IMG/VR virus record: IMGVR_UViG_3300010218_000003
Coordinates: 2,124 to 66,123 of that record
DNA length: 64,000 nt
Source of the DNA: a virus
Lineage: Duplodnaviria; Heunggongvirae; Uroviricota; Caudoviricetes
Direction: 5' to 3' (one strand)
A model generated the notes under the pieces. That model saw only the letters and a list, made by a program, of their open reading frames with translations, was not told the DNA's origin and searched no databases. Position 1 is the stretch's first letter; every line of letters begins with the position of its first letter. Shown one piece after another: positions 11,852 to 50,858 of this stretch. Position numbers and translations under genes: made by a program.

Positions 11852-12064
11852 TCATTCAGCGCAATCATCAGTGCCACATTGCTCAGCACTCCGATTGCTA
11901 TCAAGATGGTCAGCAGCAGAACGACCCGTGATCTCATAGATGATTCTTTCTGCATTGCATTGTGGGCAGAGATTCTTGTCATAACCATTATAGGTGCGAA
12001 GGTGGCCGGTTAGCTTATTCCGACCACACTTACACTTACCTAAGTTCCGCTGCCTCGTCCTCAC
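11852..12064 (-). CDS. zinc-finger protein
   Basis: 70 aa; CKC...CPQC. Confidence 0.45.
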   Translation of the reverse strand: MRTRQRNLGKCKCGRNKLTGHLRTYNGYDKNLCPQCNAERIIYEITGRSAADHLDSNRSAEQCGTDDCAE

Positions 12065-22251: not shown

Positions 22252-22328
22252 ATTTCAATCCTCCTGCCTCTGATGAATTAGGCAGTATCAGTATATCAGG
22301 AGGATTGTTATGAAGTCTAATTGACTTG

Positions 22329-22398
22329 CTGTCACAGTTGGATTCGAACCAACAACATCCTTGGCCTAGGATTGCTTTGCCAATTAAGCTACGTGACA
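22329..22398 (-). tRNA. tRNA-like with non-standard 6-nt anticodon loop (AGGCCA)
   Basis: acceptor TGTCACG/TGTGACA, D-arm GCTT/AAGC, perfect ATCCT/AGGAT stem, T-arm GTTGG-TTCGAAT-CCAAC. Confidence 0.5.
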
Positions 22399-23890: not shown

Positions 23891-23903
23891 GTTGATCCTT
23901 AAG

Positions 23904-23945
23904 TGGAGATGGCGGGAGTCGAACCCGCGTCCTGATGCTTCAAAC
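23904..23945 (-). ncRNA. tRNA 3'-fragment-like element (T-arm + acceptor 3' strand)
   Basis: GCGGG-TTCGACT-CCCGC then CATCTCC-A; no 5' partner found. Confidence 0.25.
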
Positions 23946-24201
23946 AGTAGTCTATACACAGCCATGTGTCAAGCAGGTAAAGCATGTGTTTATCCCCACC
24001 GGGCCAAACATTCGCAACTTTCTGTTCCTAGGCAGTTGCCGCCCGGCCATCACGCCGCTAGGGCGTAGGCAGATGCAACGTTAGAGTTGGCATTTATAGG
24101 TTTGAGGCTTTTTAAAGACATCTCCTCAATGTCTGGCTGCAAACTAAAGTCATCCACCCCAGTCGAAACCAAGGCATCCCCTAGGCCCCGAAGGGCTGTT
24201 C

Positions 24202-27522: not shown

Positions 27523-27594
27523 TGCATGTAGGAGGATTCGAACCTCCGAGGTAGGGCTTTACAGGCCCGCCTAGCTTGTCCCTGGCTTACATGC
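27523..27594 (-). tRNA. tRNA-Tyr (anticodon GTA), short variable arm
   Basis: acceptor GCATGTA/TACATGC, loop CTGTAAA, T-arm GGAGG-TTCGAAT-CCTCC. Confidence 0.75.
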
Positions 27595-34956: not shown

Positions 34957-35060
34957 CCCGGGAAACACGGAATCGAACCGTTCCTGACTTATTCATTGTG
35001 GTCCCTGACGGTATCGCACCGACCTCTAAAGCTTTTCAGGCTATCGCTAATCTATCTCAG
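34957..35060 (-). ncRNA. unassigned structured element with tRNA T-arm (AACGG-TTCGATT-CCGTG) and long hairpins
   Basis: no foldable acceptor/D arms; lies in 1-kb noncoding tRNA region. Confidence 0.25.
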
Positions 35061-35209
35061 CTAAAGGACCAAGCACGGTTTAATTATGAGGAAAACCGTG
35101 AAAGACTCTCACCTTATTGGTAGACGGACCTAGCTAGGCACCTTTCCCGAATGCCCTTCGGGCCTGCGCAAGCCCTAGGGGACCTACATCGGATCGTCAT
35201 CTCAGGCTA

Positions 35210-35290
35210 GCGGAGCGACGGGATTCGAACCCGCAACTGCTACTCTGTTACCTACTAACAGCGTAAGTGCTGCTTTCGGCATTGCATTTC
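35210..35290 (-). ncRNA. tRNA-like element with aberrant body (6-bp CTGTTA/TAACAG hairpin, 5-nt loop)
   Basis: GCGGG-TTCGAAT-CCCGT T-arm and CGCTCCG 3' end, no 5' acceptor partner. Confidence 0.25.
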
Positions 35291-35371
35291 GCCGTTTGAC
35301 CTATTAAACTACACCCCTCATATCAGGAGCGACCTGATATGCATTTGACGGCATCGCGTTTACCATCAAAG

Positions 35372-39579: not shown

Positions 39580-39606
39580 GCAAAAAACCCCTCCGAAGAG
39601 GGGTTC
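39580..39606 (-). terminator. rho-independent terminator after rsr
   Basis: AACCCCTC-TTCG-GAGGGGTT hairpin followed by TTTTTT on minus strand. Confidence 0.7.
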
Positions 39607-39610
39607 TTGC

Positions 39611-41239
39611 TCAGATTCGACCTGCGGAGAAGTTGGCTAGGACACGTGGAGCGTTGCTATCAAAGCCAACGAAGTCCATCATTCCACTATCGCTTGGGTC
39701 AGCAATAGTGAATGGCGTTGAAGCGACTCCTAGAACAGCAAGTCGTGCATCAATACCCATGTCCTTACGGTACTTCTTTAGAGCCTGGAATGGGTGAATC
39801 TTGCCAGCCCACGTCTCGTTATCAGTGATAACGACGAAGGTGTCAACCTCAATTCCATTCTCAAGAGCCCACGTCATTGGCAGTGAGCAGTCTGTACCGC
39901 CCCAGTTTACTGAACGCATTGCACTCATTGCCTGAGCAAGAGAGCTGCGACCAGTAATCTTTAGTTCGGTCATACCGCTGTCACGCCAGTTGTACCCCAC
40001 GCTGGAGAAGCCGCGAAGAATGTGAGCTGGCTCTGTACGCGCAATGGTCATCGCCATAGCACCAGCAACTTGTGCACAGCTTAGGTCGAGACCCATAGCC
40101 ATAGCACTCATTGATCCGGAACAGTCGATGGCTAGCATCGTCCTCTTACCGGCTGGCTCAATGGTCTTGAATGACTTGTGGAACGCCTCATCGATTGCAT
40201 CGACAATAACGGCCTCAGTCTCCCAGTTCTTTACACGTCCGCCGTAGTAGTTCTTTCGATCCACCTGGCCTTCTGCGTAAACAACAGCAGCGTTGAGGAA
40301 GTTAATTGGGTGCAGTCGAGACTGACGAATCAACTGTTCATTCGTTAGCTGACCAGCGAAGCTTGCAGCAAACTGCATGTCCTTGAAAGCACCAATACGC
40401 GCGAGGCGAGTGATGTTTCGAACAGCAGCCTGACCACGAAGCTGACCATTAGCGAAGAGCCGCTTCCAGACACTAGCATCCGTGAGGAACTGTGTTGGAA
40501 TTGTCTCCCAAGAAAGCATCTCGTAATCCCGCAGAACTGCGTGAACAGCCTCTACGGACTCCGCCTTCTGCATAAGCTTGAAGCCCTCGATAACCCGAAG
40601 GTCATCTACAGCGTCATGCTCCTTGCCTAGGACGAAATCAGCAACAGACGTGTTAACGTTCTGTGGGTGAGCCTTTCGCATTACGTCTCGCAGCGTCCAG
40701 GTGTTTCCACCGAACTTACGTGAACGATACTTGACTGCCTGGTAAGCGAGCTTATCAGCGTCCTTATCGAACCAGCTAGCTACGATCTCACGCTTTGCGC
40801 GACCCCATCCGCCAAGCTCGTTAAGATAGTTAACTACCTCGTAGAGGTGAGTAGCAGTCCTAACGACCTTGTTGAATACAGCCTTGACCGCCTGCTTATC
40901 CTTGCCGTTGACAATGACAGAGGCTAGAGCGAACAGGGCTGGACTCTGCTTATACGCACGACCATTGACAGATACATCAACGATTGTGTTCAGTACAGAG
41001 GCTTCGTCACGAGCAATGAACTCATTGAGGAAGCTTACGTTGCTCTGGGTGTGGTTAACCTCAGATACGTAATACGTTCCTCCGTCAGTTCCCAGAATCA
41101 GGAAGCGCTCAAGGCGAGACTGATCAGAAACCTGGAAGACGAATCCACCAGCGTTGTTCTTGACCTGCCCGTCCTTAGCCTTCATGGACTGAGAAGTCTT
41201 GTTGGTTGCCTTTGCGGCATTAGTTAGTGCGTTGGACAT
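39611..41239 (-). CDS. rsr: Ro60/Rsr ortholog (TROVE domain + C-terminal vWA/MIDAS)
   Basis: 542 aa; N-terminal TROVE-like region; C-terminal DCSGSMS MIDAS, same TROVE+vWA architecture as Ro60. Confidence 0.75.
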   Translation of the reverse strand: MSNALTNAAKATNKTSQSMKAKDGQVKNNAGGFVFQVSDQSRLERFLILGTDGGTYYVSEVNHTQSNVSFLNEFIARDEASVLNTIVDVSVNGRAYKQSPALFALASVIVNGKDKQAVKAVFNKVVRTATHLYEVVNYLNELGGWGRAKREIVASWFDKDADKLAYQAVKYRSRKFGGNTWTLRDVMRKAHPQNVNTSVADFVLGKEHDAVDDLRVIEGFKLMQKAESVEAVHAVLRDYEMLSWETIPTQFLTDASVWKRLFANGQLRGQAAVRNITRLARIGAFKDMQFAASFAGQLTNEQLIRQSRLHPINFLNAAVVYAEGQVDRKNYYGGRVKNWETEAVIVDAIDEAFHKSFKTIEPAGKRTMLAIDCSGSMSAMAMGLDLSCAQVAGAMAMTIARTEPAHILRGFSSVGYNWRDSGMTELKITGRSSLAQAMSAMRSVNWGGTDCSLPMTWALENGIEVDTFVVITDNETWAGKIHPFQALKKYRKDMGIDARLAVLGVASTPFTIADPSDSGMMDFVGFDSNAPRVLANFSAGRI

Positions 41240-41275
41240 TTCTTTCCTTTCCGGCCCTTTTAGGGCATTTAATTC

Positions 41276-41611
41276 TTAGAGAGTCTTTACGTCATTCCAC
41301 TCAACAGTGGTAACGACCTTCTCTACTCGTTCTAGCAGATAGACATCATCGTCTTCGTACATATTCTCTTGCATCTCTGTCTTACCGCTATCCCAGCGTA
41401 CTCCGACAAAGACACCTTCGTCAACCTCAACGATGTCTAGCATGTGATCCATCCAGCGAGAAGTAGCCTCTTCGACTGTCTCTACATGCTTTAGCTTGAA
41501 CTCATCTTCACCGAGTTCTTCGTTGATTTCATCAACGATATCTTCTGCCCAATAGCTCTGACCAGATGACCACAGCTCCTTGAAACGTGCAATGCGCGCT
41601 TCGGTGTCCAA
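41276..41611 (-). CDS. hypothetical acidic protein
   Basis: 111 aa. Confidence 0.5.
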   Translation of the reverse strand: MDTEARIARFKELWSSGQSYWAEDIVDEINEELGEDEFKLKHVETVEEATSRWMDHMLDIVEVDEGVFVGVRWDSGKTEMQENMYEDDDVYLLERVEKVVTTVEWNDVKTL

Positions 41612-41639
41612 CCTTTGATCCTTTCGTAGACATGAAAAG

Positions 41640-41712
41640 ATCGGGCAAGTTGGTAGGAATCGACCTTATATTTGCAGTGTAAGATAACCGATTCCATTCG
41701 GCCCGATATAAA
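41640..41712 (-). ncRNA. structured element A: nested stems ATCGGGC/GCCCGAT and GGAATCG/CGATTCC, 26-nt apical loop; carries GGGCCGAATGG...CGGTTATC core
   Basis: perfect 7-bp outer and inner stems on minus strand; member of 4-copy family. Confidence 0.35.
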
Positions 41713-41759
41713 GTTGTATGGGTAAGTTGTTGACATCGACCGTAAACCTAGCGCCAAAG

Positions 41760-41830
41760 CAATCCACGGATTCGAACCGTGTTTCGGTCTGTTTCATAGA
41801 CAGATAACCGATAGTCATTCGACCCAAAAG
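41760..41830 (-). ncRNA. tRNA-like element B: GGGTCGAATG core, D-loop-like CGGTTATC, GTCT-ATGAAAC-AGAC hairpin, perfect T-arm CACGG-TTCGAAT-CCGTG, no acceptor pairing
   Basis: immediately 3' of tRNA-Asp on minus strand. Confidence 0.35.
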
Positions 41831-41901
41831 TCCCGACGAAGGGAATCGAACCCTCGATAATACGCTGACAACGTATCGTGTTTCCATTACACTACGCCGG
41901 G
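41831..41901 (-). tRNA. tRNA-Asp (anticodon GTC)
   Basis: acceptor CCCGGCG/CGTCGGG, D GTGT/ACAC, perfect stem ATACG/CGTAT, loop TTGTCAG. Confidence 0.85.
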
Positions 41902-42566: not shown

Positions 42567-42597
42567 TAAACCTCGCTATTATCTTGTTGTTTTGAAG

Positions 42598-42674
42598 CGA
42601 CCCCTACGGGAATCGAACCCGCCTGATGTCTGCCTTGACAGGGCAGTGACCACAACCTAGCAGTCCCAGAGGCC
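42598..42674 (-). tRNA. tRNA-Asp (anticodon GTC), second copy
   Basis: acceptor GGCCTCT/AGGGGTC (GU pairs), perfect stem CTGCC/GGCAG, loop CTGTCAA. Confidence 0.7.
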
Positions 42675-48101: not shown

Positions 48102-48194
48102 AATAAGTCCTTTAGGTATAAGGCGGGAACGGAGAGTGTGTAGTCCTTAATGTCATCCTACCACACACAATCTAAGATGACTTGTATCTACCGA

Positions 48195-48262
48195 GCGAAC
48201 CCAGCGATAGGAATCGAACCTATTATCCATTGAGTGATAACCGTTACCCATTCGACCCAAAT
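48195..48262 (-). ncRNA. tRNA-like element C: GGGTCGAATG core, GGGT-AACGGTTA-TCAC D-arm-like, T-arm ATAGG-TTCGATT-CCTAT, no anticodon arm
   Basis: immediately 3' of tRNA-Pro on minus strand. Confidence 0.35.
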
Positions 48263-50130: not shown

Positions 50131-50140
50131 ATATGTGGAT

Positions 50141-50225
50141 AAGTGTTGGGAGTCGGGTGGCCAATTTAATGACCTTTCTATTTCCAATGTAAGATAACCG
50201 ACCGAGCCCTTCGACCCACATTTAC
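50141..50225 (-). ncRNA. element D of GGGTCGAA(G/T)G...CGGTTATC family (degenerate T-arm)
   Basis: immediately 5' of tRNA-Gly on minus strand; shares core with A, B, C. Confidence 0.3.
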
Positions 50226-50237
50226 TACTTTAGCAGC

Positions 50238-50858
50238 TTAGTCTTCGTCTGTCAAGCCAGAGGCTGTTGCCCTGTCCTGATCAGTAAATTCTGCTGCCTT
50301 ACCCTCACGGTAGTTGGTGACGTACATGTCCATGGTAGCACCCATGCCACGCACACCAGCAGGACTAGCCGCAAAGGTCAAACTTGAAGCTGTTGGAATA
50401 CCCATCTGAGCACCAGTTGCAATTGCATCCTGGTTAGCGGCAAGGAAGATGAACTCGTAGCCCAACTCCCTTGACTCGCTAATCAGCTTGTTAACTGTAT
50501 CTAGCTTCCACTCCTGAGAGACATTCTCAAGACCATCGGTGAGAATAACGACGAGTCGCTTATCCACCGGCATATGATCCATCGTCTGCCTGAATTCTGT
50601 CACAGACTTGCCGATTGCGTCAAGCAGTGCAGTCATTCCGCGAGGAACAATCTTAATCTCAGGAGCGTTTTCTAGAGCAACTGGACCAAATAGGTCTTCT
50701 ACTTCACCATCGAACTGAACGACCTTGATTCCACATCGTCCCTCAACAGCCTTCTGCTTGTCAAGGAAGTCATTCAGCGCTTGCTCCGCTTCCATCTGGA
50801 TACTAGACATGCTACCAGATCGATCAACGATGAGCAACATTGCTGTAGTAGTAGACAT
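50238..50858 (-). CDS. von Willebrand factor A (vWA) domain protein
   Basis: MIDAS DRSGSM; 206 aa. Confidence 0.75.
   Translation of the reverse strand: MSTTTAMLLIVDRSGSMSSIQMEAEQALNDFLDKQKAVEGRCGIKVVQFDGEVEDLFGPVALENAPEIKIVPRGMTALLDAIGKSVTEFRQTMDHMPVDKRLVVILTDGLENVSQEWKLDTVNKLISESRELGYEFIFLAANQDAIATGAQMGIPTASSLTFAASPAGVRGMGATMDMYVTNYREGKAAEFTDQDRATASGLTDED

Follow-up and report, generated by a model that had tools for sequence, protein, structure and literature searches.

The 64,000-nucleotide stretch analysed here (hereafter the window; positions 2,124 to 66,123 of the IMG/VR record IMGVR_UViG_3300010218_000003) carries on its minus strand a gene for an orthologue of the RNA-binding protein Ro60/Rsr and, upstream of it on the same strand, four related RNA elements with the features of Y RNAs. 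Elements 1 and 2 lie 400–590 nt upstream of the Ro gene, in the spacer between a tRNA-Asp(GUC) gene and a 111-aa open reading frame (ORF), and elements 3 and 4 lie 7–9 kb upstream of it. An earlier note on this DNA had placed two non-canonical elements, A and B, beside the same tRNA-Asp, with one small ORF before the Ro gene. That setting is the one found here, with A corresponding to element 2 and B to element 1; both are real, and two more copies, at 48111–48261 and 50134–50220, lie outside the interval of that note and had been overlooked. On sequence similarity the window is from a Streptomyces cluster BE phage, with the 3.3-kb region around the Ro gene sharing 91–94% identity with ~25 phages of that cluster (Karimacvirus, Stanwilliamsviridae), and KentuckyRacer being the best match at ~94%.

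The Ro ORF encodes a full-length Ro60/Rsr orthologue, a protein already known from relatives of this phage, whose annotation names it a “Ro-like RNA binding protein”. The architecture read earlier from the translation, a TROVE region followed by a C-terminal vWA domain with a MIDAS motif (metal ion-dependent adhesion site), was borne out by hidden Markov model searches, with Pfam TROVE (PF05731) matching residues 26–326 (E = 3.5e-34, 119 bits, cut-off 23) and vWA_Ro60 (PF25045) matching residues 366–537 (E = 3.2e-60). The protein aligns end to end with Deinococcus radiodurans Rsr (2NVO; residues 13–541, 3.8e-101), and further matches were obtained with human Ro60 (9NEN, 2.5e-85), Xenopus Ro60 (1YVP, 1.9e-84), and the PHROG 850 family “RNA-binding protein” (5e-108). 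The DxSGS motif of the MIDAS is kept, reading LAIDCSGSMS in the phage protein and LALDVSGSMT in Rsr. The terminator of its own that had been proposed for the gene is matched by an intrinsic-terminator-like hairpin and T-run directly after the stop codon, and a scan for sigma-70 promoters gave matches no commoner than in shuffled sequence. Searches with tblastn found Ro in 358 phage records, 212 of them from phages of Mycobacterium and 115 from phages of Streptomyces, with the rest from those of Gordonia, Microbacterium, Rhodococcus, and Agrobacterium; the Ro protein described here is only ~39% identical to that of the mycobacteriophages.

A common module in the four elements

All four elements contain a module consisting of a terminal helix, an invariant bulged C, an upper stem, and a G-UUA(U/C)C that likewise does not vary; within it, GA pairs with UU (a G.U wobble beside an A-U pair) and the internal loop is asymmetric. 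In elements 1 and 2 the terminal helix has 5–7 bp, and the motif GNCGAANG and GGUUAUC are present. The GNCGAA-type motifs of the elements read GUCGAAUG, GCCGAAUG, and GUCGAAGG. The pattern CGAANG-N2-14-GGTTATC is matched four times in the window against 0.03 matches expected, and chance is therefore excluded.

Element 2 is a plain hairpin, in which a 7-bp lower stem (AUCGGGC/GCCCGAU) leads through the bulged C41700 and GAAUG to an upper stem of 7–8 bp (GGAAUCGG/UCGAUUCC), with GGUUAUC opening the loop and the 3' strand (ACCAACUU) followed by a UCUUUU tail. The nested 7+7 bp stem-loop reported as element A is thus real, with stems of 7 and 7–8 bp. Element 2 is present in the window phage and missing from BE1 phages. 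Element 1 starts 4 nt downstream of the discriminator base of tRNA-Asp(GUC), for which the CCA is not encoded, and has a lower stem UGGGU/ACCCA, the bulged C41821, GAAUG, and an upper stem UGAC-U-AUCGG/UCGAU-GUCA followed by GGUUAUC. Within it lie a hairpin with an anticodon-like 7-nt loop (41788–41804), a perfect T-arm, and a weak, degenerate hairpin with GG in its loop, ahead of the 3' strand AACAACUU. For element B the anticodon-like hairpin, the perfect T-arm, and the lack of tRNA-type acceptor pairing described earlier all stand; the D-loop-like segment does not, being probably the GGUUAUC 5' of the hairpin, an invariant motif of the family. What had been overlooked is that the ends of the element pair (UGGGU/ACCCA), forming the same bulged-C module as in element A; the proposed Ro-binding helix with a bulged C is present, and covaries, in both.

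Element 3 begins 3 nt past tRNA-Pro, and its 3' strand enters the ribosome-binding site of the ORF that follows, which encodes an RlaP-family nucleotidyltransferase. Orthologues of element 3 occur in Wofford, Yaboi, Mildred21, Jay2Jay, and others, and the element is absent from Tomas, which still has the nucleotidyltransferase ORF. Between tRNA-Pro and element 3, BE1 phages carry an extra unannotated tRNA-like piece, UAGCCCC...GGUUAAAUUCC...GGGGCUC (Jay2Jay L016 4958–5038, Paradiddles L018 4046–4126). Element 4 is of the plain type with an added inner hairpin, ends 3 nt ahead of the first base of tRNA-Gly(UCC), and has orthologues in which both the upper stem and the inner hairpin covary.

The structure was examined in a MAFFT alignment of 19 plain-type elements, comprising BE orthologues of elements 2 and 4 and copies from a Mycobacterium, a Gordonia, and a Microbacterium phage. 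RNAalifold found the 7-bp lower stem, with compensatory changes in six of its seven pairs. Over the 18 pairs of the lower stem, GA/UU, and upper stem, 88.9% of alignment cells are paired, compared with 33–46% when the 3' partners are slid; 13 of the 18 pairs show double-sided change, and none of 500 shuffles reaches the observed covariation. A covariance model built from this alignment (R1) was used to scan the window with filters off, and recovered elements 1 and 3 in addition to the two seed members, with scores of 43.1 bits (E = 1.3e-8) for element 1 and 75.8 bits for element 2, which is in the seed. The next best match (11987–12050, plus strand; 13.6 bits, E = 0.35) lies antisense inside minus-strand ORFs, and was rejected as a fifth copy and attributed to chance. 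Among 69 distinct R1 matches from many phages, 90.8% of cells are paired and 295 show double changes, with the bulged C invariant in 69 of 69, as are G27, U29, U30, and A31 of G-UUA. When each of the four sequences is folded singly by minimum free energy (MFE), both its lower and its upper stem are recovered.

A tRNA-like T-arm of the UUCRANY type with covarying stems is present in elements 1 and 3 and absent in elements 2 and 4. Pairing of the T stem is kept in distant relatives and paralogues (CACGG/CCGUG, ACAG/CUGU, GCAGG/CCUGC, AUAGG/CCUAU, GUAGG/CCUAC), as is that of the hairpin that follows the T-arm, which reads GCCC/GGGC or GGCC/GGCC. In BE1 phages, element 1 comprises a hairpin, a T-arm, and a D-like arm with a 4-bp stem and a 7-nt loop containing GG, and the D-like hairpin covaries between GCCC-AAGGCAC-GGGC and GGCC-AGGGCUA-GGCC. 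The identity of elements 1 and 2 to close relatives is 94–100% (94–99% for element 1), compared with 85–87% for the 111-aa ORF and 86–96% for Ro, even though the 218-nt spacer between tRNA-Asp and that ORF is without annotation in these relatives.

The family is also found beside Ro in other phages. Clusters of R1 matches lie directly upstream of Ro in Mycobacterium phage Spud (three), Rhodococcus phage Trina (six), Microbacterium phage Cece (three), and Streptomyces BK-cluster phages, and eight matches flank Ro on both sides in Gordonia phage Boopy. Uncultivated viruses of IMG/VR were searched by a motif scan, then with R1, then by tblastn with Ro, and Ro was found immediately downstream on the same strand in eight non-BE contigs with R1 matches, seven of them distinct (L022, L023, L029, L034, L044, L053/L072 with identical sequence, L066, and L087); contigs L035 and L047 end too near their R1 matches for the position of Ro to be judged. 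The middle R1 match of Spud contains an Rfam YrlA match. BE1 phages (Jay2Jay L016 8034–8152; also Paradiddles, EGole, and NootNoot) have after tRNA-Ile(UAU) an extra, canonical YrlA, here element 5, which is missing from the window phage; it has the same ends together with a canonical T/acceptor-like/D domain, and gives a full-model Rfam YrlA match of 39.8 bits (E = 9e-8). Because the Spud match contains YrlA and element 5 shares its ends with the window elements, the latter are, by sequence and structure, members of the superfamily of the experimentally defined YrlA and YrlB.

Between five and eight Y RNA-like elements surround Ro in some actinophages and contigs of uncultivated viruses (Trina L012 466–1404; Boopy L013; L118, with five over 7 kb), and part of the Trina cluster is annotated as a 209-nt pseudo “tRNA-OTHER”.

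Table 1. Features of the window at and around the Ro gene, with the evidence for each
Feature	Position	Strand	Evidence
Terminator-like hairpin CCTCTTCGGAGGGG, then TTTTTT	39588–39601	minus	Consensus scan, also seen in alignments; directly after Ro stop codon
Ro60/Rsr orthologue, 542 aa, TROVE/HEAT ring and vWA with MIDAS motif DCSGS	39611–41239	minus	Pfam, PDB, PHROG
Acidic ORF, 111 aa, between putative Y RNAs and Ro	41276–41611	minus	PHROG 13073 (unknown function)
Element 2, putative Y RNA, plain hairpin type	41635–41709	minus	Model R1, sub-threshold Rfam, covariation
Element 1, putative Y RNA, T-arm type	41719–41826	minus	R1 match outside seed, covariation, conservation
T-arm of element 1, CACGG-UUCGAAU-CCGUG, perfect	41765–41781	minus	Sequence; GGTTCGAATCC match at 41768–41778
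tRNA-Asp(GUC)	41830–41901	minus	ARAGORN; Rfam tRNA 60.6 bits
RlaP-family (RNA ligase-associated Pol-beta) nucleotidyltransferase, 173 aa	47580–48101	minus	PF10127 5.6e-5, 23.4 bits (cut-off 23)
Element 3, putative Y RNA, T-arm type, long 3' extension	48111–48261	minus	Motif match; R1 27.2 bits, E 1.3e-4, not in seed
Element 4, putative Y RNA, plain type with inner hairpin	50134–50220	minus	Motif match; R1 67.5 bits (seed member)
vWA-domain protein, 206 aa, directly upstream of element 4	50238–50858	minus	Pfam VWA_2 1.2e-6, VWA 2e-5

Function of the elements and alternative explanations

Taken together, the conserved Ro protein, the covarying module, and its recurrence beside Ro make it likely that this part of the phage genome codes for a ribonucleoprotein module of Ro60 and Y RNAs. 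We infer the transcription, processing, Ro binding, effector, and biological role of the elements from sequence. The elements would be transcribed within long tRNA/ORF transcripts, and their ends are probably made by tRNA-processing enzymes, since elements 1 and 3 begin 3–4 nt past a discriminator base and element 4 ends 3 nt before a tRNA. By likeness to other Ro-Y RNA pairs, contact with the Ro60 ring is probably made on its outer face, by the lower stem and bulged C. The distal modules, by analogy with Deinococcus and a Thermus phage, would link Ro60 to an effector, for example the host polynucleotide phosphorylase (PNPase), and gate access to the Ro cavity. During infection, such a particle would be likely to survey or repair structured RNA that is damaged or misfolded.

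Several observations weigh against a Ro60-Y RNA module. An Infernal search with the Rfam YrlA model (RF02553), as suggested in the earlier note, left all four elements without a match, even at E ≤ 10; the gathering score of this model, 69 bits, is also missed by the YrlAs of phages Spud (36.1 bits), Boopy (52.1 bits), and Jay2Jay (element 5). With the spacer scanned alone, element 2 reaches 33.9 bits (E = 1.4e-5) with the Rfam model of the stem-bulge RNAs (sbRNAs; RF01656) and 19.2 bits with Y_RNA (RF00019), both below the gathering threshold of 38. The tRNA-like part of element 1 is reduced to a T-arm, a variable-arm-like hairpin, and a weak GG-loop hairpin, and that of elements 2 and 4 is lacking altogether; the acceptor-like stem-loop, present in element 5 of BE1 phages, Cece, and Boopy, is missing from element 1 here and in every BE orthologue, and the D-like stem of element 1 in the window has just 2–3 bp around UUUGGC. 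The 7–9 kb that separate elements 3 and 4 from Ro exceed the ~2 kb seen in bacteria. MFE z-scores are unremarkable for elements 1 (-0.4), 3 (-0.7), and 4 (-1.2); stability alone is uninformative, as the fold of the whole 236-nt spacer has a z-score of -1.0 and, taken singly, only element 2 (-2.8) is unusually stable. Furthermore, the apparent conservation in the 69-sequence alignment (A2) is inflated by its having been fitted to the model, and by the use of a motif-containing pattern to fetch the IMG/VR loci.

The elements could instead be cis-acting RNA-processing or regulatory structures independent of Ro, such as RNase P, Z, or E punctuation, parts of 5' untranslated regions, or terminators, which we regard as improbable. 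Their placement is what speaks for it, with all four being intergenic and either within 3–4 nt of a tRNA or shortly upstream of an ORF, the 3' strand of element 3 entering the RlaP ribosome-binding site, element 2 ending in a U-run ~25 nt before the 111-aa ORF, and the T-arm of element 1 being marked as terminator-like in the consensus scan. However, the invariant bulged C, GAA, and GUUAUC fit the published Ro-binding motif (PMC4201824) and no RNase signal, the family stands directly upstream of Ro in the eight non-BE viral contigs, and the placement itself varies, with an endonuclease gene before element 1 in Sollertia, another after element 3 in KentuckyRacer, and the RlaP ORF without element 3 in Tomas.

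It is less probable again that the elements are real small RNAs whose main partner is something other than the phage Ro60, which would serve as decoys or sponges, with host Rsr, anticodon nucleases, or host tRNA-binding enzymes as their targets, or play a part in replication through UUAUC. Two copies do lie 7–9 kb from Ro beside other genes, mimicry of a T-arm could titrate tRNA-recognising enzymes, and metazoan Y RNAs and sbRNAs need UUAUC to be active in DNA replication (PMC4726728). Against this, the Ro-binding module is found in all copies, even those without a tRNA-like part, the family co-occurs with Ro in all phage lineages examined, and binding of Yrl RNAs encoded upstream has been demonstrated for a phage Ro60 in a 2025 study (PMC12135203).

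In RefSeq, orthologues of element 1 are annotated as a 70–72 nt tRNA-Ser(tga) in Mildred21 (L006 2886–2957) and Paradiddles (L008 2888–2957), with the Mildred21 orthologue scoring 25.5 bits against the tRNA model, below threshold. The proposed acceptor pairing is broken in Paradiddles, however, and the alternative hairpin, which is incompatible with that acceptor stem, covaries (GCCC/GGGC vs GGCC/GGCC); the tRNA-Ser calls are probably a misannotated Y RNA. An origin of element B and its paralogues as tRNA pseudogenes in decay, and of element A as a hairpin formed by chance, all without function, is hardly credible and is largely refuted by the covariation: the 42-tRNA array, the perfect T-arm, and these annotations would suit such an origin, but the terminal, upper, and T stems are kept by compensatory changes, the elements are better conserved than the adjacent coding sequence and stand beside Ro in unrelated phages, and neither ARAGORN nor the Rfam tRNA model, the latter even at E ≤ 10 on the spacer, calls a cloverleaf in any of the four. 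Decayed pseudogenes lacking a covarying helix, which the earlier note had weighed against its own proposal, do not fit a helix that covaries and a conservation of 94–100%.

Within a Ro60-Y RNA module, a possible but doubtful extension is that the four RNAs are non-redundant, forming a graded set that directs a single Ro60 to different partners in an RNA-repair or counter-defence machine. If so, the series would run from a plain hairpin to a T-arm only, to T plus D, and to the full T-acceptor-D domain of BE1, with its members matured by tRNA-processing enzymes; candidate partners would be the RlaP nucleotidyltransferase, the vWA protein, RNA ligase, polynucleotide kinase, and host PNPase, and the task of the machine would be to rescue tRNAs, of phage or host, after their cleavage by host anticodon nucleases. 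A further consequence would be that the helix, bulged C, GA.UU, GGUUAUC, and CAACUUG reflect true homology with metazoan Y RNAs and sbRNAs, and not convergence.

The Ro60-Y RNA module proposed in the earlier note is supported, and the combination is less notable than was suggested there: Ro is annotated in over 350 phage records, a 2014 paper already described Y RNAs of phages (PMC4201824), and binding of Y RNAs by a phage Ro60 was shown in 2025 (PMC12135203). What this example adds is the un- or misannotated RNAs, their four dispersed copies, the reduced tRNA-like domain, and a working search model, with no new principle. In over 100 genomes of Streptomyces phages of the BE cluster the Y RNAs go unannotated, with at least two RefSeq records filing one as tRNA-Ser, and the terminal-module model finds Y RNAs that Rfam YrlA misses, together with multi-copy clusters beside Ro in numerous further actinophages and contigs of uncultivated viruses. 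The BE phages form a natural series of progressively reduced tRNA-like domains, and are a practical system because hosts and phages are easily obtained (SEA-PHAGES collection). Such a system could address the purpose of the tRNA-like module of bacterial Y RNAs and the use of Ro60 to a virus, the latter having been deferred to a future infection model in the Thermus-phage study (PMC12135203).

Neighbouring genes and genomic setting

The RlaP ORF directly downstream of element 3 also matches PHROG 388, nucleotidyltransferase (4e-21), and homology with KentuckyRacer places in the tRNA island, alongside the tmRNA, genes for RNA ligase, polynucleotide kinase, and a band-7 protein. Together with the vWA gene upstream of element 4, these genes look like an RNA-repair toolkit, and RlaP and Ro/TROVE have been discussed as components of phage RNA-repair systems (PMC7824862). 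The 111-aa ORF has no Pfam match and gives tblastn matches solely in BE-cluster loci; as it is absent from other Ro-encoding phages, it was rejected as a conserved partner of Ro or the Y RNAs.

Endonuclease genes lie near the elements in some relatives. In Sollertia (L138 286–753), a free-standing LAGLIDADG homing-endonuclease gene lies between tRNA-Asp and an intact element 1, and an intron inside the Y RNA was accordingly rejected for this phage. BoomerJR and Genie2 have an insertion known to be of the same size, and KentuckyRacer has an HNH endonuclease between element 3 and the nucleotidyltransferase.

BE-type phages are siphoviruses whose genomes, of ~130 kb, carry over 40 tRNAs as well as a transfer-messenger RNA (tmRNA) (PMC13191466, PMC5764925). 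The window, with a G+C content of ~48%, holds 42 tRNA genes and a tmRNA, every one on the minus strand (ARAGORN, Rfam). The tmRNA (23903–24181; Rfam 94.5 bits) encodes the tag peptide ANSNVASAYALAA and is already annotated in relatives. A second tRNA-Asp(GUC), called by ARAGORN at 42597–42674, is 78 nt long with an unusual cloverleaf and falls below the Rfam tRNA threshold; its top Rfam match is tRNA-Sec (25.4 bits), in the style of a 9-bp acceptor and a 6-bp D-stem, and the gene is conserved and labelled tRNA-Asp in all BE relatives. Also on the minus strand are a tRNA-like gene with a 2-nt “anticodon” (gc; 22328–22398) and three tRNAs called by Rfam only (34999–35070, 27523–27594, and 35210–35318), one of which is 109 nt long, and orphan T-loop motifs occur outside the called tRNAs at 2783, 8683, 21642, 30061, 34969, and 35571.

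Comparison with known Ro-Y RNA systems

Among the closest known counterparts are YrlA and YrlB of M. smegmatis and cluster C mycobacteriophages (PMC4201824), which the elements resemble in lying upstream of rsr on the same strand, in having GNCGAAN0-1G near the 5' end, and in the T-arm. Chen et al. identified GNCGAAN0-1G as the site at which Rsr is likely to bind bacterial Y RNAs (PMC4201824), and elements 1 and 2 both start with it. By a rule in the same paper, every species has a tRNA-like Y RNA and another with a long hairpin (PMC4201824), which fits the pairing of element 1, with its T-arm, and element 2, a hairpin. In contrast to YrlA and YrlB, four copies are present here, two of them at 7–9 kb and flush with tRNAs, with no match to RF02553, no acceptor-like stem-loop, and a degenerate D arm; the order in YrlA is variable-arm hairpin, T-arm, acceptor-like stem-loop, and D-arm (PMC4201824).

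Ro60 of the Thermus phage phiLo binds two Yrl RNAs encoded immediately upstream of its gene, and also host PNPase, as reported in NAR in 2025 (PMC12135203). The phage described here is similar in having two Y RNA-like genes just upstream of Ro60; those of phiLo were recognised from the CGAA motif and a stem-bulge-stem structure (PMC12135203). It differs in host and phage lineage, and binding in phiLo is experimental, whereas that proposed here is read from sequence; a tRNA-like module or tRNA-array context is not reported for phiLo in the portion of the paper available (PMC12135203).

Among solved structures, the closest to the phage protein is D. radiodurans Rsr (2NVO), which forms the RYPER complex (Rsr-Yrn1-PNPase). 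In the RYPER model, the Y RNA tethers Ro to the exoribonuclease and gates the Ro cavity. Recruitment of PNPase by the phage RNAs would be analogous, with the difference that the T- and D-like arms of Deinococcus Yrn1 are arranged differently (PMC4201824).

Element 2 additionally resembles metazoan Y RNAs and sbRNAs. In vertebrates the site bound by Ro60 is a helix of 7 bp in which one cytidine is bulged, a layout that elements 1 and 2 match, and UUAUC is conserved in vertebrate Y RNAs and sbRNAs (PMC4726728), a motif not mentioned by Chen et al. (PMC4201824). Element 2 has the 7-bp lower helix, bulged C, GA/UU, GGUUAUC atop the upper stem, and a U-tail, and its 3' strand (ACCAACUUGCCCG, compared with the sbRNA consensus CACCAACUUGACCG) shares CAACUUG(A/C)CCG. 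Unlike metazoan Y RNAs, it scores below the gathering thresholds and has no RNA polymerase III context, and the notion that Rfam sees every actinophage Y RNA as metazoan-like was rejected, since element 4 and the Spud Y RNAs give no such match. The resemblance would therefore appear to be a shared Ro-binding signature and not family membership, and may reflect a common Ro60-binding site only.

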